From Candidatus Nealsonbacteria bacterium (lineage in GTDB: Bacteria; Patescibacteriota; Minisyncoccia; Minisyncoccales; MHMH01), in NCBI GenBank assembly GCA_016181965.1, contig JACOYH010000007.1, positions 7,110-71,109 on the forward strand: a stretch of 64,000 nucleotides of DNA, given 5' to 3'. Under the pieces are notes generated by a model. It ran no database searches. It worked only from the letters and a program-made list of their open reading frames with translations, and was not told the origin of the DNA. Positions within the stretch are counted from its first letter, which is position 1. Each line of letters begins with the position of its first letter. Below are positions 4,646 through 57,987 of the stretch, piece by piece. The position numbers and the translations under genes are program-made.

Positions 4646-4698
4646 CTTTACCGAGGACTGTCCTTGCCAGATTCTGGCAAGGACAGTCCTCGGTAAAG
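4646..4698. repeat. 53-nt perfect hairpin/palindrome (25-bp arms, 3-nt loop) just after the AlkD-like gene stop
   Basis: ctttaccgaggactgtccttgccag att ctggcaaggacagtcctcggtaaag. No U-tract follows on the minus strand. Confidence 0.85.
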
Positions 4699-4706
4699 TC
4701 GGATAG

Positions 4707-5420
4707 CTATTTCTTGCCTGTGAGGAGTTTCCTTCTTGTTTCCCGAACTGCTATTTTGGGCAAAAACTCTTTGTTTACATCTATATAAAATGCAACTCTT
4801 TGGCGATGATTTTGAATCAAAGCCCTGATTAACCAAGATACGGCCTTAGTAATTAAAATATCTTTTTCGCTCTTGAGCTTGTCTATATTTTCAAACGCCA
4901 TATCGGCCAATAAATGACTATTAGACTCTCTGACGGGCTTGGTGAGTAAAACTAAGGCAGCTCGTCTCTTGTGAACATCTTTATGTTTGACAAACATTTT
5001 GAGTAATTTTTTCCATGCATCCCATTTATTCAGCAATTCTTCGGCCGTAAATATGCTTTGACATAAGGAATCAACTTCTGACCAACCCTTGGCTCCGGTC
5101 AGCCATCTATCTAAATAGCGTGGCTCAATTTTCTTTCGTAATGTCGGTAAATATTCCAAAAGCTTTCCGCCGAAAGTTCTTTCAGTGTGCGATTTGCCTT
5201 CAAAAAATGAGTTTAACACCAAAAGAAGTTCTGCTAATGAAATATCTTTATGTTCCTTTACCCATTTTTTGGCAATCTGCCGCACTTGCGGATTGGTAAT
5301 GTTATATATAGGGCGAGGTGTACCCATGTATTTACCAGCATAATACCATCCCGTATTTTGAGGATTTGAATTTGCCACCCTTTTGATTTTCCTTAAAATT
5401 TCTTGATGAGATTGATCCAT
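4707..5420 (-). CDS. DNA alkylation repair protein (AlkD/AlkC-like HEAT-repeat family)
   Basis: 237 aa with ...IAKKWVKEHKDISL...GKSHTERTFGGKLL...WSEVDSLC...HKRRAALVLL...ILITKAVSWLIRAL, resembling the DNA_alkylation family. Confidence 0.65.
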   Translation of the reverse strand: MDQSHQEILRKIKRVANSNPQNTGWYYAGKYMGTPRPIYNITNPQVRQIAKKWVKEHKDISLAELLLVLNSFFEGKSHTERTFGGKLLEYLPTLRKKIEPRYLDRWLTGAKGWSEVDSLCQSIFTAEELLNKWDAWKKLLKMFVKHKDVHKRRAALVLLTKPVRESNSHLLADMAFENIDKLKSEKDILITKAVSWLIRALIQNHRQRVAFYIDVNKEFLPKIAVRETRRKLLTGKK

Positions 5421-5537: not shown

Positions 5538-6584
5538 TTAACTGAATTGCCCGATGATTTTATCGATTAAATTATTTAAGTTATGGTGCTTAACTACGAT
5601 TTCTCTTCTTAATTGAGGATCTGCGGGGGCTGTCATTAGATTAGTAATTTTATCGGCTAAATCATTGGCATTGCCTTTTTCAAAAATGTATTTATCGGCC
5701 AGAATTTTTTTATAGGCCTCGTTGCAGGTTAAAACAAGACAGCCCGCAGCCATGGCTTCCAGCACTACTTTATCCAAACTGCCGGTTGAGCTGGGGTTAA
5801 CAAATAAATCGGCCTCTTGATAATATTCTGGCATTTTGGCGTGAGGCGCGCCGGCCAAAAACTCTATATGTTCGTTTAGTTTATAATTTTTAGCTTGCTC
5901 TTTCAGGTCAGCCAGATATTTTTTTTCTGACTCTACGAGAGGTGTGCCCATAATTTTTAAGTTGATGTTGCAGACCTTTCTTTGGTTAACTAAAATATTC
6001 ATTGCTTCAATAAGAGTGGCGTGGCCCTTAACTGGCACGAGACGCGCCGCATATAACAAGCGGAAGGATAGAAGCCCGGCTTCCCGCGGAAGCCGGGCCT
6101 CTTGAACCGGCCGGAAAAGTTCGGTGTCTATTCCCTGTCCCAGCGCTTCTATTTTTTTGCTCGAAAGCCGACAGCCATCGGGCGAGGAAGTTACAATGTT
6201 GTCCACCAGTTTTTCTGCTATTTTCAGCTTAAGAGGCGTGGCTCCGTGCGCATACCATAAAATCAATTTTTTCCCGAAAATCTTAGCCAAAGGAAAGCTG
6301 GCGATAGCGAAAACAGGCCCCATATGAACATAAACGCCTCTGGCTTCCGATAAATGCGCGAGCAAAAATTTCTGCAACCTCCAGAGCTGCCTTATTTTAG
6401 AATAGCCCCTTTCTTTTCCCAAAGATAAAACCTTAATATTTTTGGGCAAATGATGTTCGCCCTCCGAAAGACAAATAGCGTAAACCTCATCTAACCGTTC
6501 TGAAAACTTTTCCAGCGTGCGATAAAAAAAGCTAAGGTTGTCGTCGTTGATATCTATTTTCTGGACAATGATAATCAGCTTCAT
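5538..6584 (-). CDS. glycosyltransferase family 1 (GT4-type, GT-B fold)
   Basis: C-terminal VNPSSTGSLDKVVLEAMAAGCLVL (E-x7-E region). The stop overlaps the next gene's start. Carries palindrome P1 copy A. Confidence 0.8.
   Translation of the reverse strand: MKLIIIVQKIDINDDNLSFFYRTLEKFSERLDEVYAICLSEGEHHLPKNIKVLSLGKERGYSKIRQLWRLQKFLLAHLSEARGVYVHMGPVFAIASFPLAKIFGKKLILWYAHGATPLKLKIAEKLVDNIVTSSPDGCRLSSKKIEALGQGIDTELFRPVQEARLPREAGLLSFRLLYAARLVPVKGHATLIEAMNILVNQRKVCNINLKIMGTPLVESEKKYLADLKEQAKNYKLNEHIEFLAGAPHAKMPEYYQEADLFVNPSSTGSLDKVVLEAMAAGCLVLTCNEAYKKILADKYIFEKGNANDLADKITNLMTAPADPQLRREIVVKHHNLNNLIDKIIGQFS
6071..6101. repeat. Palindrome family P1, copy A, in-frame inside the GT4 gene
   Basis: gaaGCCCGGCTTCCcgcGGAAGCCGGGCctc, translated on the minus strand as EARLPREAGL. 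Confidence 0.85.
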
Positions 6585-20885: not shown

Positions 20886-20953
20886 TATTTTATTATACCA
20901 TTATGTCAGCATGATGTCAGGATGTCCGGCACCCCTCAATTCTGTACTTGTTA

Positions 20954-21007
20954 GGTCTGTTAGAGCCAGGCTCTAACAAGCTTGTTAGAGCCTGGCTCTA
21001 ACAGACC
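20954..21007. repeat. 54-bp perfect palindrome centred on ACAAGCTTGT
   Basis: ggtctgttagagccaggctctaacaag|cttgttagagcctggctctaacagacc. An extra taacagacc copy follows at 21011-21023. Confidence 0.9.
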
Positions 21008-21026
21008 TGCTAACAGACCTAACAGA

Positions 21027-25454: not shown

Positions 25455-26204
25455 TTATTGGTTATTATGCGCCTGCCAAAGCTTGTATAGGGCTTCTTGG
25501 TAGAGCCCTGCGTCGTAATCCTGCATGGCCTGCTTTAGCAGTTCTTGTTTTTCTTCAGTTAATGTTCTGCTTGATAAATCCTCTATCAAATATCCGGCTG
25601 TCTGTTTCTCTAAAACGCTCAAAGCATTTTTCAAATCCTGCGTATCGCCAACCTCGGCGCCCAAGACCCTTTCTACTCTTTCTTTGTTTTCTGCTAATTT
25701 CAGGGTTTCTTCAACTAATTCTCGCAGCACAATAGCGTCCGAGCTGGTTACGTTGGCATCCATATCATTGAGATTCTGGGTGGCCTGCACCAAACTTGCC
25801 TGAAATTCTTTGATGGCCGGCTCTAATTTTCCAACCTGATTGCTTTCGGCTATTTGGCTTAATTCTGCCAGGCGCTTATTGGCTAATTGTAGCTGGACTT
25901 TTGGCTTTTCCATTTCCGAAGAAAATCCCACCTGCACGGTTTCAGTCGCTTTCTTGATTGAAAAGAAAAAGTCGCCGGGCATGGTGCCTTGCGCAAAGCC
26001 GAAAAGCCCGATAACAAGCACGACGCTCAAAATCGGAGCAAAGGCCAGCTTGTATCTGAAAACAGAAAATACCGAGGCCATTTCTTCCGCTTCCCTTGTC
26101 TGCTCTTGGGCCAGAATTCTGCTCTTAGTCAAAACAACCCAGTCCTTTCTGGGTTTGATTTCCTTGAGACATTTTAGATTGTGGATAAGTTCATTATCGG
26201 TCAT
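25455..26204 (-). CDS. membrane-anchored anti-sigma-like protein with a DUF5667-type helical domain
   Basis: ATG at 26204 (MTDNELIHNLKCLKEIKP...), one TM (LAFAPILSVVLVIGLFGF), then PGDFFFSIKKATETVQVGFS..KVQLQLANKRLAEL. The ORF-track start at 26333 is TTG and reads through a palindrome. Confidence 0.65.
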   Translation of the reverse strand: MTDNELIHNLKCLKEIKPRKDWVVLTKSRILAQEQTREAEEMASVFSVFRYKLAFAPILSVVLVIGLFGFAQGTMPGDFFFSIKKATETVQVGFSSEMEKPKVQLQLANKRLAELSQIAESNQVGKLEPAIKEFQASLVQATQNLNDMDANVTSSDAIVLRELVEETLKLAENKERVERVLGAEVGDTQDLKNALSVLEKQTAGYLIEDLSSRTLTEEKQELLKQAMQDYDAGLYQEALYKLWQAHNNQ

Positions 26205-26276
26205 ATCGGATATCGATTGTCTATTATAGTTATGACGGAAAAGAAGATATTTTGTTACACCAATATCCAGCCATCG

Positions 26277-26330
26277 TTTGTGATAGGCCGGGCTTATCAC
26301 AAGCTTGTGATAAGCCCGGCCTATCACAAA
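26277..26330. repeat. 54-bp perfect palindrome centred on ACAAGCTTGT, between the sigma and anti-sigma genes
   Basis: tttgtgataggccgggcttatcacaag|cttgtgataagcccggcctatcacaaa. Confidence 0.9.
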
Positions 26331-26349
26331 CAAACCGCTTATTACAAAC

Positions 26350-28445: not shown

Positions 28446-31400
28446 AAGCCATAAAATCTATAGGGGGTAAACTATCTTTGCAAAAGACGATTTTAACGAT
28501 TGCCATAGCCGCAATCGTTTTTTCTTTCTTGTCCAATTATTCTTTGGCCGGCCAAACAAAAGTCAACCAGCAAGAAATGCAAAGAATCAAACAGGGCTTG
28601 GATATTGTTAAAACAGCTTCAAGTTTCGGAAGCGTTCTTCTTGACGATGGCGGCTTAATGAAAGCGCTCAACACGGTTATCAAGGGCGGCAGCGCGGCCA
28701 CGGATGTCACCTACGGCCTGCTTGTCTTGAGCGCCGTCAACGAAATGGAACTAATGGATTTGGTGCTTTCGCAGGAGTATAAAACAATAGAAAGAGAATA
28801 TTTTGAACAAATTTTAGACGAGAGGACCAATTTAATATCTTATTGGAGAGGAGTTGGTTTTGACTTGCCCAAAGTGCTCTCTGGACAGATTACCGGCCCC
28901 ATGGCTGGCTTAACTTTAAACAGCTTTGCTATGACCAACAAAATTATCCATATTGCCACCGCGTTTGAAGTGTTAAAAAAAGGCCAACTGTATGATGGCC
29001 TATGGTATTACTTTGATTTAAGAAAAAATAGCAATGAGCCGCATGAAATAGCTTGGCGCGAAGCAAAAATGATACTTGGTTTTGCGACTAATTCAGTGGG
29101 ATTTCACGGACCAACACAAAGACAGAATAAAAGAATCGAGCTCGAAGCTCAATTCACATCCCTTTGGGATAAATGGGGGCTATACGCCACGCCAGGAGGC
29201 ATCAGTAATCAGTATCAAGAACAAGCAAAAGAGGAAATGAGAAGCATGCTGGCCGTGGCAGCTGAAACGCAAAGGTTAGCTGAAATAGAAAAACAAAAAG
29301 AACCATCTTGGCTATCAAAACAAATAGATGAACTCAAAACACTCGCGTCAGGCCTTGGAGAAAAAATTCACACTATGGTCTCCAAGATCGCCGACGCCAA
29401 TCCCTTTAGCGCCGGCCCAATTGTCCAATCGCCAAAAGATACACCGGTGGCACCGGTGCGAAATTCGGCCGGGCTTCAGAGCCCCAAAAACCGAGAATCA
29501 GAAGACCAAACCCCGACAGAAAGAGGCGAAGAAGCCCGGCTTCCTCGGGAAGCCGGGCTTCAGGTTCCACGAGAGGTCCCACGAGAGGTCAAACCTCAAG
29601 CGCCTCAAGAGATTGAAAGTGAAAAGACAACAGAGGAGAAAGTGAAAGATAAAGAGGTCCGAGAAGAGGAAAAAATTAAAATAGTCGAGATCAAACCCAC
29701 GCCAGATGAGCCGGGACTTTGCGAGAAAATTGCCGGGGACTTGCCTAAAAGATATAGGGCTTTCATTAACGAGGTGGCCTGGATGGGCAGTCAAAATTCG
29801 CCAAATGACGAATGGATTGAGCTGAAAAATATTTGGGGCTTACCCGTCAATCTTAACGGCTGGCAATTACAAGACAAAGACCAGCAAATAAAAATAATTT
29901 TTGAAGAAAATGATACTATTCCGGCCAGCGGATATTATCTTTTAGAAAGGACAAATGATGACTCAACGCCCAAAGCCAAGGCCGACAAAATATACACGGG
30001 CGCTTTAGGCAATAACAATGAGGCCTTATATTTATTTGATAATGACTGCCGATTGGAAGACGAAGTTATAGCCGATCCCAGTTGGCCAGGCGGCGACAAT
30101 ACCGCTAAAAAAACAATAGAACGGCTGGATCCCTTATACTGGTACACAAGCGCTTCTATAGGGGGCAGCGCCGGAAAAAACAACGGCACGCCTCCGGCAA
30201 TTTTAAAGCACCCCAGCGCGCCAACTCCCCCTTTGCCTGCTTCAGCGCCGACTTATCTTACAATTTTGATTGACGAAGTCAGAATTGATGGCGATGGAAA
30301 TATCAAAAACGATTCCGTTAAACTCTACAATCCCAACGATACGGCGGTTGATTTAACAAATTGGTATTTGCAAAGGAAAACAGCGAACTCTTCCGTATTC
30401 TCAACTTACGCGCCAAAATCGCTTTTTGCCGGAAAATCCATTGAGGCAAACGGATACTTTTTAATTGCTCACGCTTCTTCAACGTTCGCTACTTCCGCAG
30501 ACGCCATCACAACTTACTCTCTGACTCGAAATAATACCCTCGTCTTAAAAAATCCAAATGGTGAAATAGCGGACACGGCGGAGCCAGCAGAAAATAACGA
30601 AGAAACGGCGTCGTTATCGGTTGTTATCAACGAAATCGCTTGGGCAGGCGCTAAGGCCAATTCTGCCGATGAGTGGATTGAACTTTACAACAACACTACT
30701 TCAGGTATTGATTTGACTAATTGGTCAATTTTGAAAGATGACGAGGAATGGATTATCTTTTCCACCTCAAGCATCGTCTCGCAGGGATATTATTTATTGG
30801 AAAGAAGCGACGATCAGACAATCAGCGATATTACGGCCGACCAATTTTTTACCGGCGCTCTAAGCAACAGCGGCCAAAAATTAGAATTAAAAAATGCAGC
30901 CGGTGACTTAATGGACTTAATTGATTTTTCTTCTAATTGGCCAGCCGGCGAAGCCGCCCCAAACTATCTTTCAATGGAAAGGATATCTTCTACTTTCAGC
31001 GATTGGGCTAGCAATAATCGAATCTCAACAAACGGCTTGGGTAGCGGCAATAATGCCATCAACGGCACGCCGAAAGAAAAAAATAGCGTTTCGAAGTCCT
31101 TCACAGAAGTTGTCGGCGATCGCGTATTTTCAGACGACTTTACGCTTACAAAACTTGGCAGTCCTTATATTTGGGAGGGCTCCCTTATCATGGAGCAGGG
31201 GACTAAATTAACCGTCGAACCCGGCGTTACCGTAAAATTCAAGCACACTGCCCCTAACCAGCCCCACGCTCAAGTAAAAATAAAAGGCGAGATGGAGGCC
31301 ATTGGAACAAACGAGCAAGAAATAACTTTTACGTCTTTTCAGGAAAATAATTATTGGGACGGGCTTTATTTTGAGAATTCAAATTCTACTCTTGAAAATG

Positions 31401-32446
31401 TCATCATCGATTATGCCGGCAAATGGCACCATAGCGGCGCAAACGAGTTTCCCCCCTATACTTACGGGGCGATATACATAGATGGCGGAACGGTCAGCAT
31501 AAAAAACTCTCTAATTCAAAACAGCGAAACCTTCGGGGTATGGCTGAAAAATTCTCCCTTAAGCTTGATAGACGGGACGACCTTTAAGGCAAATCCTGGC
31601 ACCGTAGAAAAGCCGGCGGCGATTTATGTTGAACAGGGCAATCCGACCATTCAAAATTCTAATTTTGAAGATAATAACATTGGGATTTTCGCTGCGAATT
31701 ACTCAACGCCCGCAATCACCGACAACAGTTTTAACGGCAACCAAGCGCCCGTGAAAATAAGCTCGCTTTTTACAGACATTTCCGACAACATCGCGCAGAA
31801 CAATGATATCAACGGAATTTTACTTGAAGCTTTTGGTTTTAATGGAGAAACCAGCGAAGTCGCGTGGCAAAAAAACGATTTGCCCTATGTTGTTGAGAGC
31901 GCCCTTGATGTTGCCGCTGGAAAAATACTAGAAATAGAATCGGGCGTCGTCGTGAAGTTCAAGGGAGAAGGGGCAATAAATATAGGCGGTACGCTAAATG
32001 CGAAAGGTAAAAATAATGATAAAATAATTTTTACTTCTATCAGCGATGACGAATACGGGGGCGACACAAATAACGACGGCAATGCGTTTCCGCCCGCAGC
32101 CGGGCAATGGAAATTTCTTAAGTTCTTGAACTCCAGCGCGGAGGCATCTTTAGACAATGTTCTCGTGAGATACGGAGGATTTCTCGGAATAAGAGGCGGC
32201 GTTAGTGCGCGCGATGGGGCAATTAAGATTGAGAACAATACGCTCACCATCAAGGATTCTATTATTGAAAACAATCGGGTGGGGATTGAAATGATTAATT
32301 CTGATTTTGACGGGAAAAGCAAAAATATTTCCGTTAGGAATAATGCCATAGGAGTATACGTTGAGGGCGCCTGCCCAAATCTAAACGATATTATTTTCGA
32401 ACAGAATACGGAATACGATATTTTTCCAATTGACTGCCAAAACTAA
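28439..32446 (+). CDS. 1335-aa secreted protein: N-terminal helical region, P/E-rich linker, three lamin-tail (LTD) domains, C-terminal right-handed beta-helix repeats
   Basis: LTD signatures INEVAWMGSQNSPNDEWIELKN, LIDEVRIDG...VKLYNPN and INEIAWAGAKANSADEWIELYNN. The C-terminus has repeated ..I.NS.I.NN..GI.. units. Confidence 0.75.
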   Translation: MVKAIKSIGGKLSLQKTILTIAIAAIVFSFLSNYSLAGQTKVNQQEMQRIKQGLDIVKTASSFGSVLLDDGGLMKALNTVIKGGSAATDVTYGLLVLSAVNEMELMDLVLSQEYKTIEREYFEQILDERTNLISYWRGVGFDLPKVLSGQITGPMAGLTLNSFAMTNKIIHIATAFEVLKKGQLYDGLWYYFDLRKNSNEPHEIAWREAKMILGFATNSVGFHGPTQRQNKRIELEAQFTSLWDKWGLYATPGGISNQYQEQAKEEMRSMLAVAAETQRLAEIEKQKEPSWLSKQIDELKTLASGLGEKIHTMVSKIADANPFSAGPIVQSPKDTPVAPVRNSAGLQSPKNRESEDQTPTERGEEARLPREAGLQVPREVPREVKPQAPQEIESEKTTEEKVKDKEVREEEKIKIVEIKPTPDEPGLCEKIAGDLPKRYRAFINEVAWMGSQNSPNDEWIELKNIWGLPVNLNGWQLQDKDQQIKIIFEENDTIPASGYYLLERTNDDSTPKAKADKIYTGALGNNNEALYLFDNDCRLEDEVIADPSWPGGDNTAKKTIERLDPLYWYTSASIGGSAGKNNGTPPAILKHPSAPTPPLPASAPTYLTILIDEVRIDGDGNIKNDSVKLYNPNDTAVDLTNWYLQRKTANSSVFSTYAPKSLFAGKSIEANGYFLIAHASSTFATSADAITTYSLTRNNTLVLKNPNGEIADTAEPAENNEETASLSVVINEIAWAGAKANSADEWIELYNNTTSGIDLTNWSILKDDEEWIIFSTSSIVSQGYYLLERSDDQTISDITADQFFTGALSNSGQKLELKNAAGDLMDLIDFSSNWPAGEAAPNYLSMERISSTFSDWASNNRISTNGLGSGNNAINGTPKEKNSVSKSFTEVVGDRVFSDDFTLTKLGSPYIWEGSLIMEQGTKLTVEPGVTVKFKHTAPNQPHAQVKIKGEMEAIGTNEQEITFTSFQENNYWDGLYFENSNSTLENVIIDYAGKWHHSGANEFPPYTYGAIYIDGGTVSIKNSLIQNSETFGVWLKNSPLSLIDGTTFKANPGTVEKPAAIYVEQGNPTIQNSNFEDNNIGIFAANYSTPAITDNSFNGNQAPVKISSLFTDISDNIAQNNDINGILLEAFGFNGETSEVAWQKNDLPYVVESALDVAAGKILEIESGVVVKFKGEGAINIGGTLNAKGKNNDKIIFTSISDDEYGGDTNNDGNAFPPAAGQWKFLKFLNSSAEASLDNVLVRYGGFLGIRGGVSARDGAIKIENNTLTIKDSIIENNRVGIEMINSDFDGKSKNISVRNNAIGVYVEGACPNLNDIIFEQNTEYDIFPIDCQN
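29531..29561. repeat. Palindrome family P1, copy B, in-frame in the linker of the LTD protein
   Basis: GAAGCCCGGCTTCC tcg GGAAGCCGGGCTTC, 14-bp perfect arms, encoding EARLPREAGL. Confidence 0.9.
29565..29588 (+). repeat. 12-nt tandem duplication (VPRE VPRE) immediately 3' of P1 copy B
   Basis: ttccacgagagg tcccacgagagg. Confidence 0.85.
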
Positions 32447-33138
32447 AATCCGATAAAATCGCGAATAACCGGAGCAGGAATAGCCGAAACTCTACCCTGC
32501 GCGCCAACCATGCTTATGCCAACAACTTCGCCGGAGATGTTAAACAAGGGGCTGCCAGCCGCCTTGGATTCACGAATGTTTGTCACCACTGCGTCTTGGC
32601 TGAAATAAGAAACAATGCCCTCGTCTGTAAACATCTTAGTGGTTGTGGCCAATCTCATCGTGCCAAGTAAAAAAACTCTTTCTCCAAGGTCTGTTTTTTC
32701 CAAATTCGCGAAGCCGGCAGTGCGCAAACCGCTCTGGTCCACTTTCAACAGCGCCAAGTTGCTTTTTGTATCTCTTTTAAGTATCTGCCAAGCAGGCAAC
32801 TGGCCATCAACGTAAAAATAAAAATCTGCTCCCTGCGGCACGAGCTCGGCCAATGTAACAATCAACCCATCAGAAGTTACCGCCAAGCCAGTCCCCTCTA
32901 ACGTTTCTCCGCTGGCTGTTTTTGTCCTGACGCCCACAATAGTTTTTTCCACCCTTTCAATGGCTTGAGTAAGGGCAACGTTTTCCTGAACGGTTATTGT
33001 TTGAGTCTGATTGATAACAATTTCGCCGTCAAAAAAAGAAGACCCCATCAAATACGGCAAAAGGTAGGCCTGCGCCCAAACGCCCCCCAACGCCCCAAAA
33101 AGAAAAATCAAGAGAATTTTTAGAATTTTTTTAGACAT
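32443..33138 (-). CDS. HtrA/trypsin-fold protein with all three catalytic-triad positions substituted (predicted pseudo-protease)
   Basis: Compared with the active HtrA at 37149-38387: TNKHVV becomes TLAELV, DLAILKI becomes NLALLKV, and GNSGGPLL becomes KAAGSPLF. Its start overlaps the clpB stop by 8 nt. Confidence 0.7.
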   Translation of the reverse strand: MSKKILKILLIFLFGALGGVWAQAYLLPYLMGSSFFDGEIVINQTQTITVQENVALTQAIERVEKTIVGVRTKTASGETLEGTGLAVTSDGLIVTLAELVPQGADFYFYVDGQLPAWQILKRDTKSNLALLKVDQSGLRTAGFANLEKTDLGERVFLLGTMRLATTTKMFTDEGIVSYFSQDAVVTNIRESKAAGSPLFNISGEVVGISMVGAQGRVSAIPAPVIRDFIGF

Positions 33139-35830
33139 AAACGCTCTCTGATTTTTTTTCTCTCTTGATTAAGTCCTGCGGCGTTCTAAAAACAACGCCG
33201 CCGTTTTCCGCATCAATGACAATTTTATCGTTGGCTCCAATTTCTCCAGAAACAATCTTTAAAGCCAATGGATCGAGCACCAATTTTTGGATAACCCTCT
33301 TGAGAGGCCGCGCTCCCAAGTTGGGGTCAAATCCCCGCTCGGCCAGCAAGTCCTTGGCCATCTGGCTGACCTTAATGCCGATATCTTTCTGCTCCAGCCG
33401 CTGGGTCACTTTTTCCATTTCAAGGTCAACAATTTGCTTGATTTCCGGTTTTCCCAAATAGTCAAAAATAACTATTTCGTCTATTCTGTTTAAAAATTCC
33501 GGCCGGAAACTTTCGCGCAAAGCGTCCATAACTTTGCTTTTCAAATCCTTTTTGGCGCCGCTGTCTCCCTCTCCGGAAAATCCCAGAGCGCTCATTTTGG
33601 CAATATGTTCGGAGCCGATATTGGAAGTCATAATCAAGATAGCATTTTTGAAAGAAGCGGTCCGTCCTTTGGCGTCGGTCAGCCGGCCGTCTTCGAGAAT
33701 TTGCAACAAAATATTGAAAACATCGGGATTGGCCTTTTCTATTTCGTCCAACAAAATTACCGCATACGGCCTTCGCCTAATTTTTTCAGTCAGTTGACCG
33801 CCTTCGTCATAGCCCACATATCCCGGGGGCGAGCCAAGAATTTTAGAAACGGTGTGTTTTTCCATGTATTCGGACATATCCAAGCGCACCAAAGCCGCCT
33901 CGTCGTTGAACAAGAATTCGGCTAAGGCCCTGGCGGTTTCGGTTTTACCAACGCCCGTGGGCCCCAAGAATAAGAAAGACCCCAGCGGCCGATTCTGCTC
34001 TGAAATACCGGCTCTCGAGCGGCGAATGGCGCTGGAGACGGCCACAATGGCCTCTTTCTGGCCGATAACTCTTTTTGCCAAAATGTCTTCCATTTTTTCA
34101 AGTTTCCTGGCCTCTTCTTCAATCAGCCGTGTTACAGGAATGCCAGTCCATCGCGAAACAACCCTAGCCACGTCTTCTTCGGATACATCCTCTTTCAAAA
34201 GGCGGTGCTTCTTTTGAAAGCGAAGCAGTTCTTTTTCTTTTTTTTGAATTTCTTTTAAATGCGCCGGTATTTCTCCGTATTTAATTTCGGCCACCTTTTG
34301 GAGATTGCCCTCTCTTTGGGCAACTTCAGTTTGAAAAGATAATTGATCAACCTCCTTTCGCAGCCCTCGAATGCTTTGAATAAAGTCCCTTTCTGTTCTC
34401 CACTGCAATTCCAACTGCTTAACTTTTTCCTGAAGATCGGCCAACTGGCGATTGATAACGCTAATTTTCTTTTTGCCGATAGCGGCCTTTTCCGCTTTCA
34501 TGGCGGCTTTTTCAATTTCCAATTTTTGGACTTCCTGCTTGAGACGTTCAAGTTCAACCGGCTCTGACTCTATTTCCAATCGCAAAGCAGAAGTTGCCTC
34601 GTCCATTAAATCAACCGCCTTGTCTGGCAAAAATCTGTCGGTAATATACCGAGCGGCCAATTCGGCTGCGGCCACGAGAGCCGCGTCTTTAATTTTTACG
34701 CCGTGATGAACTTCGTATTTTTCTTTTATTCCTCTTAAAATGGCAATAGTATCTTCCACAGACGGCTCGGCCACAAAAATGGGCTGAAATCTTCTTTCCA
34801 AAGCCGGGTCCTTTTCTATGTATTTTTGATATTCCTTAAGGGTAGTGGCGCCGATGGCCCGCAGTTCGCCGCGGGCTAAAGCCGGCTTTAAGAGATTGGA
34901 GGCGTCAATTGCGCCTTCAGCAGCACCCGCTCCCACCAAAGTATGGAGTTCGTCAATAAAAAGAATATATCTGCCGCCGGCCCTATTAACTTCTCGCAAC
35001 AGGGCCTTTACCCTGTCTTCAAATTCTCCCCGGTATCTGGTGCCGGCGACTAAAGCGCCCAAGTCCAGGGCAATAATATCTTTGTCTTTAAGCGATTCGG
35101 GAACATCCCCTCTTACTATTTTCTGCGCCAAACCCTCAATGATGGCTGTTTTGCCGACGCCCGCTTCGCCAATCAGCACAGGATTGTTTTTTGTTCGTCT
35201 GGACAAAACCTGCATGAGCCGCCGGATTTCGTTATCCCGGCCTATCACCGGATCCAACTTGCCGGTTCTGGCAAGGACATTAAGATTTCTCGAGTATTTT
35301 TCTAAAACCTGATATTTGGATTCGGGCTCGGGGTCGGTGATTCTTGCGCCGCCGCGAATTTGCGATAAAATTTTAAGGGCCTCTTCATAGTTCAATTTTC
35401 CAAAGCCCAGCGCCTCTCCGCTTGATTGCAAAAAGCTGGCTTTTTCCAAAACCTCCCGCGCTTTCACATCGGAATCCAGCAGAGCCAAAAACAAATGTTC
35501 GACCGAAATAAAATCGTCGCCCATTTTCATTGCTTCCTGTCTTGCCCGCTCAAGGGCCTTAGCCATATCTTGCGTCAGATAAAACTGGCCCATCATTTGA
35601 GGCGTGGTAACGGTAGGGATTTTATCTAAAGCCGCCTTGGCTTTTTTCTTCAGACCCTCAAGATCAACTCCCATTTTTTGGAGCAGAGTCAAAACCACGC
35701 TTCCTTCTTGGGAAACGAGAGACAACAGCAAATGAAGGGCGTCCACCTGCTGTTGACCATGCTGGCGGGCCTCGTCTTGAGCCGCCAAAATTGCCTCTTG
35801 CGCTTTATGGGTAAAATTATTTCCTATCAT
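33131..35830 (-). CDS. clpB: ClpB protein disaggregase (AAA+ chaperone)
   Basis: 899 aa with a Clp_N repeat, two Walker A motifs ([19 protein letters not shown]) and a long coiled-coil M-domain between the NBD1 subdomains. Confidence 0.95.
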
Positions 35831-35836
35831 ATAACT

Positions 35837-35845
35837 ATTATATCA
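35837..35845 (-). promoter_or_regulatory. extended -10 promoter element (TGaTATAAT), 6 nt upstream of the clpB ATG
   Basis: Minus strand: ggtgTGaTATAATagttatATG. Confidence 0.55.
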
Positions 35846-35932
35846 CACCGTAATTTAACAAAAAAACTTCAAAAAATCAACCCCGCATTATGCCCCTTAT
35901 CTTACATAGTCTTACAGAAGCCGCCACTCAAT

Positions 35933-35958
35933 ACTACTATACTACATAGTATAGTAGT
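35933..35958. promoter_or_regulatory. 26-bp AT-rich palindrome, site 1 of 3 (candidate operator)
   Basis: ACTACTATACTA ca TAGTATAGTAGT, 103 nt upstream of the clpB ATG and 60 nt after the NDT-like gene stop. Confidence 0.6.
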
Positions 35959-36017
35959 GTTTAGTGCCGCCCTTGGCGACTATTTCTACGTTTTATAGAA
36001 AGCATCGTGGGGATTTT

Positions 36018-36431
36018 TCATGCAATTTGCGATAAGTCGCCATAAATTATCGTCGGCTTCACTGCCTCAATTTCTGATTTGTAATACGATATGTCAGGAA
36101 TCGGATTGTATAGGAATATCTTTTGATTCAGAACATGCGCGAAACCGATTTCCATCAATGTATTTCCGCCAATGTAATTCTTAATTCCATGCTTATCGAG
36201 ATTAAGAACTAAGACGGCATCCGCTCCTTGCATCTCGTTCCAGAATACTCTAATCGCATCCATATTACTTTTCTGATGAATTTTGATTCTTTCTTTTTCT
36301 TCGTCACTTTTTCCAATAAATGACCCATGTAGTTCTGTGACGAACGCATCGTGCCCCAACTTAATCAGATTATCTCTGACCTCAAGCATTTTCTCTGTAT
36401 ATTGCATACTACCAATGATTCCTATTTTCAT
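36018..36431 (-). CDS. nucleoside 2-deoxyribosyltransferase-like (NDT/YtoQ-type Rossmann-like) protein
   Basis: MKIGIIGSMQY...ADAVLVLNLDKHGIKNYIGGNTLMEIGFAHVLNQKIFLYNPIP resembles the Nuc_deoxyri_tr2-like family. Confidence 0.45.
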   Translation of the reverse strand: MKIGIIGSMQYTEKMLEVRDNLIKLGHDAFVTELHGSFIGKSDEEKERIKIHQKSNMDAIRVFWNEMQGADAVLVLNLDKHGIKNYIGGNTLMEIGFAHVLNQKIFLYNPIPDISYYKSEIEAVKPTIIYGDLSQIA

Positions 36432-36504
36432 ATTCTTATGACCCGAGAGCCTTTATATTTTTCACCGATCCCGTAGGAATAATGTTATCCCGATTAATTA
36501 CAAT

Positions 36505-36530
36505 ACTACTATACTACATAGTATAGTAGC
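36505..36530. promoter_or_regulatory. 26-bp palindrome, site 2 of 3
   Basis: ACTACTATACTA ca TAGTATAGTAGc, 1 nt after the regulator's stop codon and 74 nt upstream of the NDT-like ATG. Confidence 0.6.
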
Positions 36531-36531
36531 A

Positions 36532-37002
36532 TTACTGTATTTGTTTTTTGCGTTTTGTGGTCGGTTTTTCTGAAGAATCTAAAAGATTAAAAAGCAGAAA
36601 ATGAAGCGGGTATCGCTTTTTAAGCCATCCAAAAGTCAGCGGCTGACTTTGTTGGAGCTCACGCTCGCCTGCTTTCCACTGCAACTCTAATTCTTTTTCT
36701 AAACGCGGAAGTATTTGAGCATATCCTCCATCTCTGCCTTGCAACCACTTATGCACCCCTGCGATGGTAATGTGGCTCGTATGCATAGCATTGCGAATAT
36801 CATCGTAGCTTTTGCCCTCAAGCAGAAAGCGAGCAATGCGAATTCTTCGCGCCAACATAATAGCTTCTGTTTCGCTCAAAAGATCGCGGAAAAAATTCTC
36901 TATCTGCTCTCTTGTTTCCAATAAAATCACTAAACTCCATAATTCATTCAGAAGATTGTGTTTTTCGTCTTTGGAGATTGTTTTTGGCTGAACCCTCGGC
37001 AT
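36532..37002 (-). CDS. TrpR-like/YerC-YecD-family helix-turn-helix protein
   Basis: ...REQIENFFRDLLSETEAIMLARRIRIARFLLEGKSYDDIRNAMHTSHITIAGVHKWL... Confidence 0.65.
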   Translation of the reverse strand: MPRVQPKTISKDEKHNLLNELWSLVILLETREQIENFFRDLLSETEAIMLARRIRIARFLLEGKSYDDIRNAMHTSHITIAGVHKWLQGRDGGYAQILPRLEKELELQWKAGERELQQSQPLTFGWLKKRYPLHFLLFNLLDSSEKPTTKRKKQIQ

Positions 37003-37022
37003 AGATTTATATTCTATATTAT

Positions 37023-37054
37023 AACACTACTATACTATATAGTATAGTAGTGTT
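37023..37054. promoter_or_regulatory. palindrome site 3 of 3, here a perfect 32-bp palindrome abutting the regulator's -10 box
   Basis: aacACTACTATACTA ta TAGTATAGTAGTgtt. On the minus strand a TATAAT (37023-37018) follows directly, 15 nt before the ATG at 37002. Confidence 0.65.
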
Positions 37055-37087
37055 TCGATAGTGCTTCCGGGTAGCGCTTACAAACAC

Positions 37088-37142
37088 TTACAGACTTACA
37101 GACGCCCGACGTCTGTAAATCTTACAGACGTCGGACGTCGGG
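37088..37142. repeat. cluster of TTACAGACG repeats (three direct, one inverted) giving mutually exclusive hairpins
   Basis: ttacagac ttacagacg cccga cgtctgtaa atc ttacagacg tcgg acgtcggg. The best hairpin is 37106-37118/37122-37134 (13-bp arms, 3-nt loop). Confidence 0.8.
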
Positions 37143-37148
37143 AAATTC

Positions 37149-38387
37149 TTATTCGCGTTTGCCGAGGGTGACTTGAAGAGAGATCTTTTCTTCGCCGCGT
37201 AAAATTATCATTACGACTTCGTCGTTGGGACCGTATTCCTGAAGAACCGAGGCAAGGGTCTTTTCTAATGTCAATTTTTGGTCTTGCAACTCTATAATAA
37301 TGTCCCCGTCTTTAAGCCCGGCTTTTTCGGCGGCAGAATTGGCAACAATAGCTGATTCTTCGTTATCGCTATTAATCCAAGCACCTTCGCTGACGAAAAG
37401 ATTGTTTTCCTCCTGAAGTTCAGGGGTAAGCATAATATAATGAACACCTAAAAAGGGGTAAATTATTTCGCCGATTTCCTGAATTTGCCTAATATCTCTC
37501 TTGGCTTTACTTACGGGGATCGCGAAGCCAATGCTTTGGGCATCCAAGACAGTGGCCGTATTTATCCCCACCACCTTGCCGTTCAAATCCAGAAGAGGCC
37601 CCCCGGAATTTCCCTTGTTAATAGCCGCGTCTGTCTGGATAACATCTTCAATCGTTTCAACGAAACTGCCGCCTGATGCCGTAATGGTTCTGCCTAATCC
37701 GGAAACCACTCCCACTGAAACCGTATTTTTAAACTCTCCAAGGGCATTGCCAATCGCCACAACGGTTTGCCCCATTTGAAGGCCATCGGAGTCGCCAAGT
37801 TCCATAACCGGAAAAAAGCTTTCTGTCATCTCGCCCCGATCGTTTACTTCTTTTACTGTTTCTATTTTTAGGATAGCTAAGTCCTGCACCGGATCGCGCG
37901 CCAAAACCTTGGCTTCGAATTTCTTGCCGTCATTAGTAAAAACCGTGTACTCGGCTTCCTCGTCCAAAACCACATGTTTGTTTGTTAAAACCATGCCGTC
38001 CGCTGAAACAATAAAGCCGGTGCCGCCGCCAATTTCCTGTTTTTTTGTGCCGATTTGCCTCTGCTGTGGAATTCTAAATTGAAAAAACGGATCTCCTCCA
38101 AAAGGGCTAATGTAATACTCTTCAAAAATAGGCAAGTCCTTGGAAACAATGATGCTGACCACAGACGGCGAGGCCTTTTCAACTGCCTCAATTATTTTCT
38201 GCTCGTGGGAAACGGGTGGCGGCACCGGCTTCAAATCCGGCAAGAATAGGCCGGTTGCTAAGCCGCCCGCCAGAAAACCGAAAACAGAAGAAAAAATTAC
38301 GGACAGGGCAATAGTCCCAAAACCCTTGTGAAGACGGAATTTGGGTATGTTAATTTTAGGCAGATTCCTTTGCTGGTAAAATGACAC
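37149..38387 (-). CDS. htrA: HtrA/DegP-family serine protease with a C-terminal PDZ domain
   Basis: Intact triad motifs VLTNKHVV, DLAILKI and GNSGGPLL. PDZ-like C-terminus (AEKAGLKDGDIIIEL). GTG start. Confidence 0.9.
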   Translation of the reverse strand: MSFYQQRNLPKINIPKFRLHKGFGTIALSVIFSSVFGFLAGGLATGLFLPDLKPVPPPVSHEQKIIEAVEKASPSVVSIIVSKDLPIFEEYYISPFGGDPFFQFRIPQQRQIGTKKQEIGGGTGFIVSADGMVLTNKHVVLDEEAEYTVFTNDGKKFEAKVLARDPVQDLAILKIETVKEVNDRGEMTESFFPVMELGDSDGLQMGQTVVAIGNALGEFKNTVSVGVVSGLGRTITASGGSFVETIEDVIQTDAAINKGNSGGPLLDLNGKVVGINTATVLDAQSIGFAIPVSKAKRDIRQIQEIGEIIYPFLGVHYIMLTPELQEENNLFVSEGAWINSDNEESAIVANSAAEKAGLKDGDIIIELQDQKLTLEKTLASVLQEYGPNDEVVMIILRGEEKISLQVTLGKRE

Positions 38388-55986: not shown

Positions 55987-57987
55987 ATGGAAAAGTCAAC
56001 CCTAGACCGGGTTTTAATCGTTGGCATCACCCCCTACTTCTTGGAAAGGGAGAATTTTTGGTTTGAAGAAAACCTGCAAAAGATATTAACGGCGAGAAAA
56101 ACCCAGTCGTTCTTTGAAGATAATATTGTTTTTTTAGAAAAGGGCAGTGATTTCAATTTTTCGCGGCTGCTCCGGCAACTTGACGAAATGGGCTATGAAA
56201 TAGTGCAAGAAGTCGCGGAACCCGGCGAAATAGCAAGGCATGGCGGCACGATTGACATTTTTCCGGTCAACTTAAATCGGGCCGTTAGAATTAATTACTT
56301 CGGCAACAAGATTGAAGAAATAGAACAATCAAATACTTGTGTTAGCGATGAAAAAAAAGACAAAGAACGGCTGAAGAAAAAACTAAAGAATCAAAAAATA
56401 TATTCCCAATTGCAAGGCCTAAAGCCGGGCGATTTTTTGGTGCACCTAGACCACGGCATCGGGCTCTTGACGGGGATAACTGGAAGTCCGGCTTCCGCGG
56501 GAAGCCGGACTTCCTCGTTTCCGTTTCCGCAGAAATATTACGTTTTAGAATATGCCTCGGGCGATAAATTATATGTGCCGCTGGGCCTTGAGAGAAAACT
56601 TTCGCGCTATGTCGGCTTTATTAATCCTAAAATTTCCCGGTTGAGCGCGCCGACTTGGTTGAATACGAAAAGGAAAGTCAAAGAGGAAACCGAAAAGTTA
56701 GCCGCAGAGCTTCTGGAAATATACGCTCAACGAGAAGTGGCTCGGCGCCAGCCCTACAGCCGCGATTTTGAAATGGAAGCGAAAATTCAAGAGACGTTTG
56801 CCTATCTTGAAACACCCGATCAGGCGCAGGCAACAAATGACATTGCCAAGGACCTTGAAGAGTCGGAAATGCCTATGGACAGGATTGTCTGCGGGGACGT
56901 TGGTTTTGGCAAAACAGAAATCGCCCTAAGGGCTGTCATTAAGGCGGTAAGCAACGGCAAGCAGGCGGCCATGATTTGCCCCACCACTATTTTGGCTTCA
57001 CAGCACTATCAAAACTTCACCCACCGGCTGAACAATCTGCCAGTCAAAATCGCGCTGATAAGCCGCCTGCAATCTAAAAGCGAACAAAAAACAATTGCCG
57101 GACAATTAAAGGCGGGGGAAATAGACATTGCCATTGGCACTCACCGGCTGCTTTCTGCCGATATTGCATTTAAGAATTTGGGCATGCTCGTTATCGACGA
57201 CGAGCAGAAATTCGGCGTGGAGCAAAAAGAGCGTCTCAAAAGAATCCGGCCGCAGTTAGATATTCTCTCGCTGTCGGCTACGCCCATTCCCCGCACTCTT
57301 TATTTTGCTCTCTCATCGCTAAAGAATATCAGTATTGTTAAAACGCCTCCGCCGGAACGGTTGCCTGTTGAGACCTTTATCAAACCACGCTCGGAAAAAA
57401 TTATCCGGCGGGCAATTGAGGCGGAAATCACCAGAGGAGGCCAGGTTTATTATTTGCACAACCGAGTTGCCACCATTGAAATGGTTAAAAAATCTTTGGC
57501 GGAAAAATTCCCCCATCTGAATGTTGGCGTTGTTCACGGCAGAATGAATGAACCGGAAATGGTGTCGGTCATGCGCGATTTCAAAGAAAAAAATATTGAT
57601 GTGCTCGTAGCCACCACTATTATTGAAAACGGCATAGACCTCTCCAACGCCAATACTTTGGTTGTGGCCGATGCCGCCAAACTCGGCTTGGCGCAGGCGC
57701 ACCAAATCAGGGGCAGAGTGGGTCGCTCAAATGTTCGGGCCTTTGCCTATTTTCTGCATTCGGGCAAATTAAACGATTTAGCAAAAAGGCGCCTGCAAGC
57801 GCTCAAAGAGGCGCAAAATCTTGGGTCGGGCTATAAAGTCGCCCTGCAAGATATGGAAATACGAGGGGCAGGCAATATTCTCGGCAAAGAACAATCGGGC
57901 AGTGTCAATCAAGTGGGTCTGAATTTGTACTGTCAGATGTTAAGCGAAGTGATTGAAAAACTGAAAACTGCCAAACCTGCCCCGTAA
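55987..57987 (+). CDS. mfd: transcription-repair coupling factor Mfd, shortened (666 aa)
   Basis: UvrB_inter-like N-terminus (GEIARHGGTIDIFP), CarD_TRCF/RID (LKPGDFLVHLDHGIG...YVLEYASGDKLYVPL), and SF2 motifs GDVGFGKTE, DDEQKFG, SATPIPRTL. No visible D2 or D7 regions. Confidence 0.85.
   Translation: MEKSTLDRVLIVGITPYFLERENFWFEENLQKILTARKTQSFFEDNIVFLEKGSDFNFSRLLRQLDEMGYEIVQEVAEPGEIARHGGTIDIFPVNLNRAVRINYFGNKIEEIEQSNTCVSDEKKDKERLKKKLKNQKIYSQLQGLKPGDFLVHLDHGIGLLTGITGSPASAGSRTSSFPFPQKYYVLEYASGDKLYVPLGLERKLSRYVGFINPKISRLSAPTWLNTKRKVKEETEKLAAELLEIYAQREVARRQPYSRDFEMEAKIQETFAYLETPDQAQATNDIAKDLEESEMPMDRIVCGDVGFGKTEIALRAVIKAVSNGKQAAMICPTTILASQHYQNFTHRLNNLPVKIALISRLQSKSEQKTIAGQLKAGEIDIAIGTHRLLSADIAFKNLGMLVIDDEQKFGVEQKERLKRIRPQLDILSLSATPIPRTLYFALSSLKNISIVKTPPPERLPVETFIKPRSEKIIRRAIEAEITRGGQVYYLHNRVATIEMVKKSLAEKFPHLNVGVVHGRMNEPEMVSVMRDFKEKNIDVLVATTIIENGIDLSNANTLVVADAAKLGLAQAHQIRGRVGRSNVRAFAYFLHSGKLNDLAKRRLQALKEAQNLGSGYKVALQDMEIRGAGNILGKEQSGSVNQVGLNLYCQMLSEVIEKLKTAKPAP
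56482..56514. repeat. Palindrome family P1, copy C, exactly 11 codons inside the Mfd RID domain
   Basis: GGAAGTCCGGCTTCC gcg GGAAGCCGGACTTCC, 15-bp perfect arms. Starts at a codon boundary and encodes GSPASAGSRTS. Confidence 0.9.

Follow-up and report, generated by a model that had tools for sequence, protein, structure and literature searches.

Palindromes bracketing a YerC-like TrpR-family gene of Patescibacteria, probably the cognate sites of its product, and their chance neighbour clpB in a Nealsonbacteria genome

Introduction

What is the role of a 26-bp palindrome that occurs three times around a small regulator gene, and does it tie this regulator to the chaperone gene clpB next to it? 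The question is raised by a stretch of 64,000 nucleotides from Candidatus Nealsonbacteria bacterium (GCA_016181965.1, contig JACOYH010000007.1, positions 7,110 to 71,109 of the forward strand), here called the window, in which three A+T-rich palindromes lie around a gene for a TrpR/YerC-like protein, an open reading frame (ORF) likened to nucleoside deoxyribosyltransferases (NDT) and clpB. In a first-pass annotation it had been proposed that the small helix-turn-helix (HTH) protein binds the palindrome as an operator and controls a clpB-containing stress regulon, as an alternative to CtsR, HrcA or sigma-32. To our knowledge, transcription factors are very scarce in Patescibacteria, whose regulation is almost unexplored.

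The reading preferred here, with a probability of roughly 60%, is that the adjacent YerC/HisR-like TrpR-family protein recognises the palindrome as its cognate double-stranded DNA site, and that site-gene-site is the conserved unit.

Results and discussion

Three copies of one palindrome in the window

The consensus ACTACTATACTA-NN-TAGTATAGTAGT, searched with up to 3 mismatches, gave exactly three matches in the 64-kb window, at 35933-35958 and 37026-37051 with 0 mismatches and at 36505-36530 with 1 (last base C). None of 100 dinucleotide-preserving shuffles contained a match, the chance expectation being 0. A palindrome scan returned site 3 as a perfect 32-bp palindrome at 37023-37054 and, around site 1, an imperfect one with 23-nt arms (35922-35969). 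The positions first reported for the three palindromes and for the perfect 32-bp palindrome were thus confirmed, as was the geometry in which each site precedes one of three minus-strand units. All genes of the region, nifS-nifU-htrA, the regulator gene, the NDT-like ORF, clpB and a dead protease gene, lie on the minus strand. The features around the regulator are as follows.

37026..37051, no strand: site 3, upstream of the regulator gene, over the -35 region and spacer of the regulator promoter; probable autoregulatory operator
37018..37023, minus strand: -10 box (TATAAT) of the regulator gene, separated by 2 nt from site 3 and by 15 nt from the ATG at 37002; consensus match only
36532-37002, minus strand: TrpR-like regulator gene, 156 aa (PF01371, TIGR02531)
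36505..36530, no strand: site 2, 1 nt past the regulator stop and 74 nt ahead of the NDT-like ATG; family-wide copy after the stop
36018..36431, minus strand: "NDT-like" cargo ORF, 137 aa, bracketed by sites 2 and 1; name tentative
35933..35958, no strand: site 1, 60 nt past the NDT-like stop and 102 nt ahead of the clpB ATG; distal end of the inserted block

Since the TATAAT box lies only 15 nt ahead of the ATG, the leader of the regulator mRNA would be very short. Within the palindrome, ACT stands at positions 1 and 9 and AGT at positions 16 and 24, giving half-sites with 8-bp spacing. A search of the window with the 12-mer half-site and with the inner core ATACT-N4-AGTAT, of the kind suggested for finding further chaperone and protease targets, recovered the three sites; further copies were not above chance level, and clpB was the only such gene near a site. 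The remaining long palindromes of the window were G+C-rich and unrelated in sequence to the three sites, which are therefore more than part of a general palindrome population, and the alternative that they are just another palindrome of this genome was rejected.

Those other palindromes include a second, G+C-rich family (GGAAGCCGGGCTTCC-type arms, 3-nt centre) at 6070-6102, 29531-29561 and 56482-56514, all inside long ORFs; the copy at 29531 encodes ...EARLPREAGLQ... of a 1335-aa protein. Perfect and very long G+C-rich palindromes with 26-29-nt arms and 0-1 nt between them, each unique in sequence, were found at 20953-21008, 26276-26331 and 4646-4698. Those at 20953 and 4646 sit after genes, the one at 26276 overlaps the start of the ORF 25455-26333, and all three look like ordinary terminator-type hairpins of this genome.

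The adjacent protein

The regulator matched PF01371 (E=8e-13, 48.8 bits against a cut-off of 27) and, just above its cut-off, TIGR02531 (yecD_yerC; 43.8 bits against 42.2), and it stayed far under the cut-off of the TrpR equivalog TIGR01321 (17.8 bits against 67.25). A profile of 35 homologues matched the Protein Data Bank (PDB) entries 3KOR, 3FRW and 3G1C at E ~1e-17. The AlphaFold2 (AF2) model had a predicted local distance difference test score (pLDDT) of 80; its residues 1-95 were superposable on YerC-like structures and on E. coli TrpR, and the top Foldseek matches to the model were 3KOR, 3FRW and 3G1C, then E. coli TrpR, with target-normalised TM-scores of 0.73-0.80. By profile and model, the regulator is classed as a member of the YerC/YecD branch of the TrpR family, with a predicted all-helical TrpR fold carrying an HTH. 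Residues 97-143 form extra C-terminal helices in the model and end, in model and homologue alignment alike, in the conserved motif W-KKKYPLHFLLFNLLD; this extension is absent from the solved relatives 3KOR, 3FRW and 3G1C.

Palindrome and protein go together

The homologues are annotated as Patescibacteria. For comparison, 55 homologue loci were fetched from GTDB genomes and further loci from metagenomes (loci are designated by L numbers below). Nearly all homologues have a long A+T-rich palindrome 5-50 bp ahead of the ATG, which in the GTDB loci often runs into a TAnAAT box 6-9 nt ahead of the ATG. The sequence of the palindrome varies by lineage, and most loci repeat their own palindrome 0-30 bp past the stop. 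By an automatic criterion, the same palindrome was present on both sides of 38 of 62 distinct homologous genes, compared with 8 of 776 control genes from the same loci; seven of these eight were two distant TrpR-like paralogues, four genes directly after a regulator and one dubious 109-aa ORF beside a regulator. Where the next gene is co-directional, the second palindrome lies 5-120 nt ahead of its ATG, an operator-like distance. By its position, site 2 of the window is read as this family-wide second copy after the stop.

The palindrome class tracks the recognition-helix class of the protein: the helix TS..TIAsVH pairs with ACT-xxx-ATACT, VGkDTIgRVQ with ..TGATAAT.., AGYDNIAKVH with ACTCCCGTAAT and VGlDTVgKV with TGATATATCA. 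Where one genome has paralogues, each goes with a palindrome of its own (L013 and L020; L015 and L032), and the palindrome of the window is common to proteins down to ~45-50% identity (L004, L008, L141, L142, L134). Between the window and L060 (86% DNA identity), no change was seen in any of the three cores or in the TATAAT box, whose offset is also the same, whereas the adjoining spacers had diverged.

Since homologues are bracketed by palindromes whose class changes with the class of the helix, site 3 is a credible autoregulatory operator. Its position next to TATAAT, covering the spacer and -35 region, had been noted as autorepression geometry, and the same geometry recurs across dozens of Patescibacteria lineages; that the upstream copy acts as an autoregulatory operator, with autorepression at site 3, is well supported by this comparison. 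Strong comparative evidence likewise points to recognition of the palindrome as double-stranded DNA by the TrpR-like protein through its HTH.

Some further observations concern related proteins and sites. Two palindrome classes stand side by side in one intergenic spot at several loci, for example ACTACTATACT... beside TTCTTTCTTACTTTAAAGTAAGAAAGAA or ACTTCAATACTCTAGAGTATTGAAGT (L088 ~1545-1580, L139, L126 ~5165-5197, L093 237-262, L069 584-609, L061/L074/L130), and are presumably the sites of two paralogous regulators. A distant TrpR-like subfamily of 92-133 aa with the C-terminus ...YRNIFDRYGQLQAIKDLF (L062 690-1091, L079 908-1309, L127 ~366-644) is bracketed by the same ACTACTATACT-ACGT-AGTATAGTAGT palindrome. 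In the PDWI/PDWJ metagenome the site consensus was extended to CACC-core-GGTG; three site copies there are followed, 12-16 nt on, by TAATGTGA or a close variant. Yet another palindrome (ACTGAATTTTTATGCTATAGCATAAAAATTCAGT) stands on either side of a NUDIX gene at L026 1911-2360, 4 kb from the regulator. At L141 15626-17595, on a Patescibacteria contig, a LexA-like Peptidase_S24 gene lies beside a split Y-family polymerase (IMS, IMS_C).

Directly after the regulator, enzymes of nucleotide house-cleaning or salvage recur (L019, L021, L035, L142 and the window, 36018-36431), namely dCMP/cytidine deaminase, NUDIX, NT5C, Ham1 and possibly an NDT-like protein; they may give a hint on the ligand. A functional theme among site-adjacent genes was considered and rejected, the excess of nucleotide house-cleaning enzymes being weak and not significant. 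For the 137-aa ORF of the window the name NDT-like is tentative, because its sole Pfam match, Nuc_deoxyrib_tr (E=0.07), falls under the cut-off; no PDB or NCBIfam match was obtained.

The clpB link and the stress regulon

The features needed to judge the clpB side are as follows.

35886..37095, minus strand: inserted block, approximate extent, with the terminator hairpin of htrA on one side and the conserved clpB promoter on the other; outer flanks short, with TGTAAG repeats
35837..35880, minus strand: clpB promoter region, TTGATT-16 nt-TTAAAT, then TGaTATAAT 6 nt ahead of the ATG; consensus reading only; outside the element
33131-35830, minus strand: clpB
32443-33138, minus strand: dead protease gene, trypsin-fold, overlapping the clpB end
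37096..37144, minus strand: G+C-rich hairpin after htrA, -33.5 kcal/mol; probable terminator of nifS-nifU-htrA

According to the stress-regulon explanation, the TrpR-like protein would be the master repressor of a heat-shock or proteostasis regulon including clpB and the dead protease, in place of CtsR, HrcA or sigma-32. It is favoured by site 1, which lies upstream of clpB in the sense of the same strand and contains a weak promoter-like match (TAAACA-16 nt-TATAGT), and by the conservation of the clpB arrangement in L060. The relatives L143-L146, whose ClpB is 83-89% identical to that of the window, largely refute it. In L143, L144 and L145, nifS-nifU-htrA is directly followed by clpB and the dead protease gene, and in L146 the latter pair stands in a different upstream context; no regulator, no NDT-like gene and no family-type palindrome were found in the clpB upstream regions of these four loci. 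All four share with the window GTTGATT-(15-16 nt)-TTAAAT/TAAATT ... TGTGATA(T/C)AAT-(6-7 nt)-ATG just upstream of clpB. Because this sequence is common to the window and to palindrome-free relatives, clpB has its own ancestral promoter, and because the relatives keep that promoter in loci free of the block, the 1.2-kb palindrome-regulator-palindrome-NDT-palindrome block is an insertion. Homology with the relatives on the clpB side resumes, for the window and L060, at GGGGTTGATT. The comparison indicates that the block was inserted upstream of clpB in the window/L060 clade only, with site 1 as its distal end. Site 1 is centred ~100 bp upstream of the conserved clpB promoter and hence does not overlap it.

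The other loci gave the same picture. A 79%-identical regulator with an identical palindrome lies between ruvB and comEA-yebC-ruvC, far from any clpB, and synteny of the regulator with clpB was not conserved among the homologue loci. Metagenome contigs were scanned for 20 specified core bases, giving at least 80 loci; among those listed, ~60 copies lie away from regulators, beside unrelated housekeeping genes and often between convergent genes, and none lies beside clpB, htrA or another chaperone gene. The gene starts facing a copy belong to RF2, RuvX, Fe-S assembly protein, MreB, LD-carboxypeptidase, DUF2207, NUDIX and further TrpR-like genes. In 1.08 Mb around ~150 sites and regulators, no dnaK was found, and the single groEL lies ~2.5 kb away from the site closest to it; clpB occurred only in the window lineage, besides one more distant tblastn match of the ClpB family (Clp ATPase) in L048, ~0.7 kb from the regulator, a locus whose palindromes were left out of the comparison. 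In the window itself, htrA belongs to the nifSU transcript and lacks a site, and the copy after the regulator stop, which is family-wide and kept even where the next gene is convergent, is likewise at odds with a regulon role for site 2. Enrichment of the site at chaperone and protease genes, which the stress regulon had led one to expect, was not seen in the window or in these loci. The palindrome does co-occur with the regulator in dozens of lineages, whereas its co-occurrence with clpB did not hold up; of the original proposal, the pairing of protein and palindrome is supported by comparison, and the clpB stress regulon is not. As the conserved unit landed by clpB only in this lineage, it looks self-regulating, with no heat-shock regulon. 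The regulon is considered very unlikely, and the clpB link is, on this comparison, best taken as an accident of where the block landed.

Resemblance to known chaperone control ends at the one repeated inverted-repeat copy upstream of a clpB, a likeness to CtsR, HrcA with its controlling inverted repeat of chaperone expression (CIRCE), and sigma-32; unlike in those systems, the inverted repeat is not conserved ahead of clpB in the relatives, other chaperone targets are absent, the protein belongs to a different family and the core promoter of clpB does not include the site. A resemblance to CIRCE was also considered for the flanks GCACT..AGTG of site 1 and rejected, only 5-6 nt matching at the wrong spacing.

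As for the neighbouring genes, the nifS-nifU-htrA unit ends at 37149 and is followed by the strong G+C-rich hairpin. ClpB of the window has 100% identity to a ClpB of a Candidatus Nealsonbacteria metagenome-assembled genome. The dead protease earns its label: in an alignment with the HtrA of the window all three catalytic residues are replaced (His by Glu, Asp by Asn, Ser by Ala). The clpB upstream region is conserved among Nealsonbacteria (window, L143, L145, L146), and its TGaTATAAT 6 nt ahead of the ATG suggests a leaderless or nearly leaderless clpB mRNA. In L143/L144 (1909-3378), the 489-aa NifU encoded upstream of htrA has LAGLIDADG_3 between two NifU_N matches and appears to be an intein-containing NifU. 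Direct repeats, (T)CTGTAAG / TGTAAGA, lie just outside both block ends (37077-37103 and 35899-35921), and the htrA terminator hairpin partly carries the same TGTAAG-type motif; these repeats could be a target duplication, the site of a second protein, or chance.

Features beyond a plain operator

Several points weigh against the reading of the palindrome as the site of an autoregulated repressor. The gene calls in the fetched loci were made with our own crude ORF script, and by the automatic criterion 24 of the 62 homologous genes are without a double palindrome. The second palindrome is kept in the ~1/3 of loci in which the next gene is convergent. The 33 non-redundant solo metagenome copies comprise 13 convergent, 14 tandem and 6 divergent positions, against a background of 21%, 62% and 17%, respectively, for intergenic regions, and the tandem ones are, on the same gene calls, mostly nearer to the upstream stop codon. 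A plain promoter-operator model leaves the convergent copies unexplained, because there is no promoter there to regulate. Symmetry also continues beyond the core, with a mean of 2.5 further complementary bases compared with 0.7 in a flank-swap control; it is site-specific in sequence outside the conserved core and takes the palindromes to a total length of up to 46-54 bp. In variant sites the two arms have changed in step, which a dimeric HTH protein does not require. Finally, site 1, with the weak promoter-like match inside it, could affect clpB by roadblock or looping.

Stable structure and positions after genes would also suit RNA. If the palindromes were RNA hairpins (terminators or 3' stabilisers), or members of a general palindrome population unrelated to the protein, the predicted hairpins of -17 to -26 kcal/mol with z-scores of -3.7 to -5.1, the many copies just past stops or between convergent genes, the frequent length of 38-54 bp of the second palindrome and the presence in the window of other long palindromes after genes would all be accounted for. 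The core, however, is identical among the sites and co-varies with the recognition helix, which would not be expected of structure-only elements, and the other palindromes of the window are of the unrelated G+C-rich kind. The 12 nt after the second palindrome contain 36% T and no T-run. Arm mismatches are without strand bias (32 G-T, 35 A-C), and since both types are equally frequent, the symmetry is not selected at the level of the sense-strand RNA. No Rfam match was obtained. Intrinsic terminators were rejected as well, the stems being A+T-rich and lacking a U-tract, and the sites having been left unflagged in a terminator scan. An RNA role is accordingly rated extremely unlikely. The extended symmetry may instead reflect cruciform or hairpin DNA, or templated correction that grows long palindromes. 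An origin-proximal or ParB-like role was also tried and rejected, as dnaA and dnaN were neighbours of the regulator in no loci but L042 and L056.

Rearrangements at the palindromes

The main rival to the cognate-site reading is a system resembling repetitive extragenic palindromes (REPs) with their REP-associated tyrosine transposases (RAYTs), or a cassette system. Low-copy dispersed palindromes would then depend on the bracketed TrpR-fold protein for spread or recombination, the block would be a mobile or rearranging unit bounded by palindromes, and the solo copies would be landing pads or footprints. As in REP-RAYT units, the gene is bracketed by its own palindromes and their class is clade-specific; solo copies are enriched between convergent genes and just past stops; and symmetry exceeds the core and is kept by changes in both arms at orthologous sites. 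In the window lineage the whole block was inserted with a palindrome at each end (sites 3 and 1), beyond which only short lineage-specific outer flanks follow. In L028 an additional gene with its palindrome stands at precisely the spot that a lone palindrome occupies in L017, L090 and L117, and in all four the next gene follows at the same 65-66 nt; L035 has NT5C in the equivalent slot, and a palindrome-regulator-palindrome-X-palindrome layout with different X is seen in L028, L035 (NT5C) and L015. Compared with L056, L003 has the regulator module in reverse orientation at the same place between ruvB and comEA, and the inverted alignment ends at the palindromes. Contigs L054 and L055 of one metagenome-assembled genome fork 11 nt after a palindrome.

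Against mobility stand, first, the properties of the protein: no nuclease or recombinase domain was detected in the regulator, and no fusion to a catalytic partner among the best 150 of 1390 homologue clusters with E<=1e-10. A phage or mobile-element origin was rejected, as no relatives were found in the viral contigs of IMG/VR. Copy number is low: long contigs carry roughly one exact core per 50-100 kb, and the window has no copy outside the block. The synteny of the regulator is stable within clades, with one inversion among ~30 syntenic pairs. The breakpoints, moreover, need no dedicated machinery, long perfect palindromes being fragile sites themselves. The rearrangements at palindromes, set against stable synteny, low copy number and the missing catalytic domain, are the reason why this explanation is kept as the main rival; we regard it as rather unlikely. 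A still bolder form, in which the TrpR-fold protein and its own palindromes constitute a phylum-wide REP/RAYT-type or genome-organising system of Patescibacteria with the gene always bracketed, is quite unlikely.

The extra gene of L028 (6513-7013), bracketed by palindromes beside the regulator, encodes a 166-aa protein in which a PD..(D/E)xK-like motif (PDFIVID...EVKF) was read by eye; no Pfam match was found for it.

Comparison with known systems

Among YerC proteins only HisR, the product of B. subtilis yerC, has been characterised. It is a histidine-dependent TrpR-family repressor of Firmicutes, a small HTH dimer of under 100 aa that binds a 20-bp palindrome (cacTTTA-N6-TAAAgtg) at histidine biosynthesis and transport genes with histidine as corepressor; hisR is often autoregulated, with a site ahead of its own gene in about half of the genomes, and its motifs are lineage-specific (PMC9413887). 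HisR is the closest relative in sequence and structure, and it shares with the protein described here the small size of an HTH protein, the palindromic site upstream of its own gene and the lineage-specific motifs. Unlike HisR, the Patescibacteria protein has ~150 aa with a C-terminal extension, palindromes of 26-46 bp and a second copy directly past the stop. A test for HisR orthology was negative: the motif differs, and the sites examined had no his or trp genes nearby, the genes beside sites being the regulator itself, nucleotide house-cleaning enzymes, RF2, RuvX, MreB and others. 

TrpR binds 20-bp palindromes and is autoregulated. The predicted fold is the same as that of E. coli TrpR (TM-score ~0.75-0.8 normalised to TrpR), and the ACT/AGT half-sites at 8-bp spacing are reminiscent of the tandem TrpR binding in 1TRR, so that tandem binding of this kind may occur at the palindrome. 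Unlike TrpR, the protein falls under the TrpR equivalog cut-off, and motif, length and site arrangement differ.

With REP/RAYT elements the system has in common a gene flanked by its own palindromes (in the 38 of 62 genes counted above), dispersed extragenic copies biased to gene 3' ends, a palindrome class specific to the protein clade and mostly vertical inheritance. RAYTs, however, are HUH Y1 transposases, whereas the protein here is a TrpR-fold HTH protein without a catalytic domain, and REPs number tens to hundreds per genome, compared with few copies here.

The pdif modules and the attC cassettes of integrons are cassette systems bounded by short recombination sites. In general terms they are similar in that single genes are bracketed by ~26-46-bp sites with 11-12-bp arms and a 4-nt centre, and in that the cargo gene varies at the same slot in relatives. 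Unlike in those systems, no recombinase gene is associated, the site tracks an HTH protein and no Xer or IntI recombinase, and the orientation of the asymmetric centres is inconsistent; a consistent orientation in flanking pairs was looked for and rejected (~15 inverted, ~11 direct, no rule).

No paper on YerC-like proteins of Patescibacteria was found in the literature. An autoregulated TrpR-family repressor is of a known kind in itself; the site-gene-site architecture and the C-terminal extension appear to be previously undescribed.

Conclusions

On the association, co-variation, geometry and insertion described above, the cognate-site reading can be set out as a mechanism. Dimers of the regulator, or possibly higher oligomers formed through the extra C-terminal helices, would bind site 3, and occupancy over the -35 region and spacer would repress the regulator's own gene. 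Sites 2 and 1 would be further binding sites of the same protein, closing off each gene of the block. The copies after genes would probably act as a second operator, either in concert with site 3, through cooperativity or a DNA loop, or by gating transcription into a following co-directional gene, and may serve as boundary elements as well. In this lineage the whole 1.2-kb block was inserted between htrA and clpB, and clpB, which keeps its ancestral promoter, is at most a secondary, lineage-specific neighbour.

A concrete protein-DNA pair is offered by this locus, a defined 26-bp site and a 156-aa protein, within a site-gene-site architecture whose co-varying specificity is conserved across many candidate phyla. 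The tempting deduction of a new heat-shock regulator is corrected, the block being, as far as the comparison indicates, a lineage-specific insertion beside clpB. Should a phylum-wide system exist after all, the extra copies at gene ends would be protein-bound boundaries, the palindromes would be points where single-gene cassettes (NDT-like, NT5C, the gene with the nuclease-like motif) insert, invert or move, and this palindrome-associated element would do its work with no known type of transposase. Should the solo copies at the ends of genes turn out to be protein-bound boundaries or recombination points, they would represent a new way for streamlined genomes to insulate or shuffle genes.

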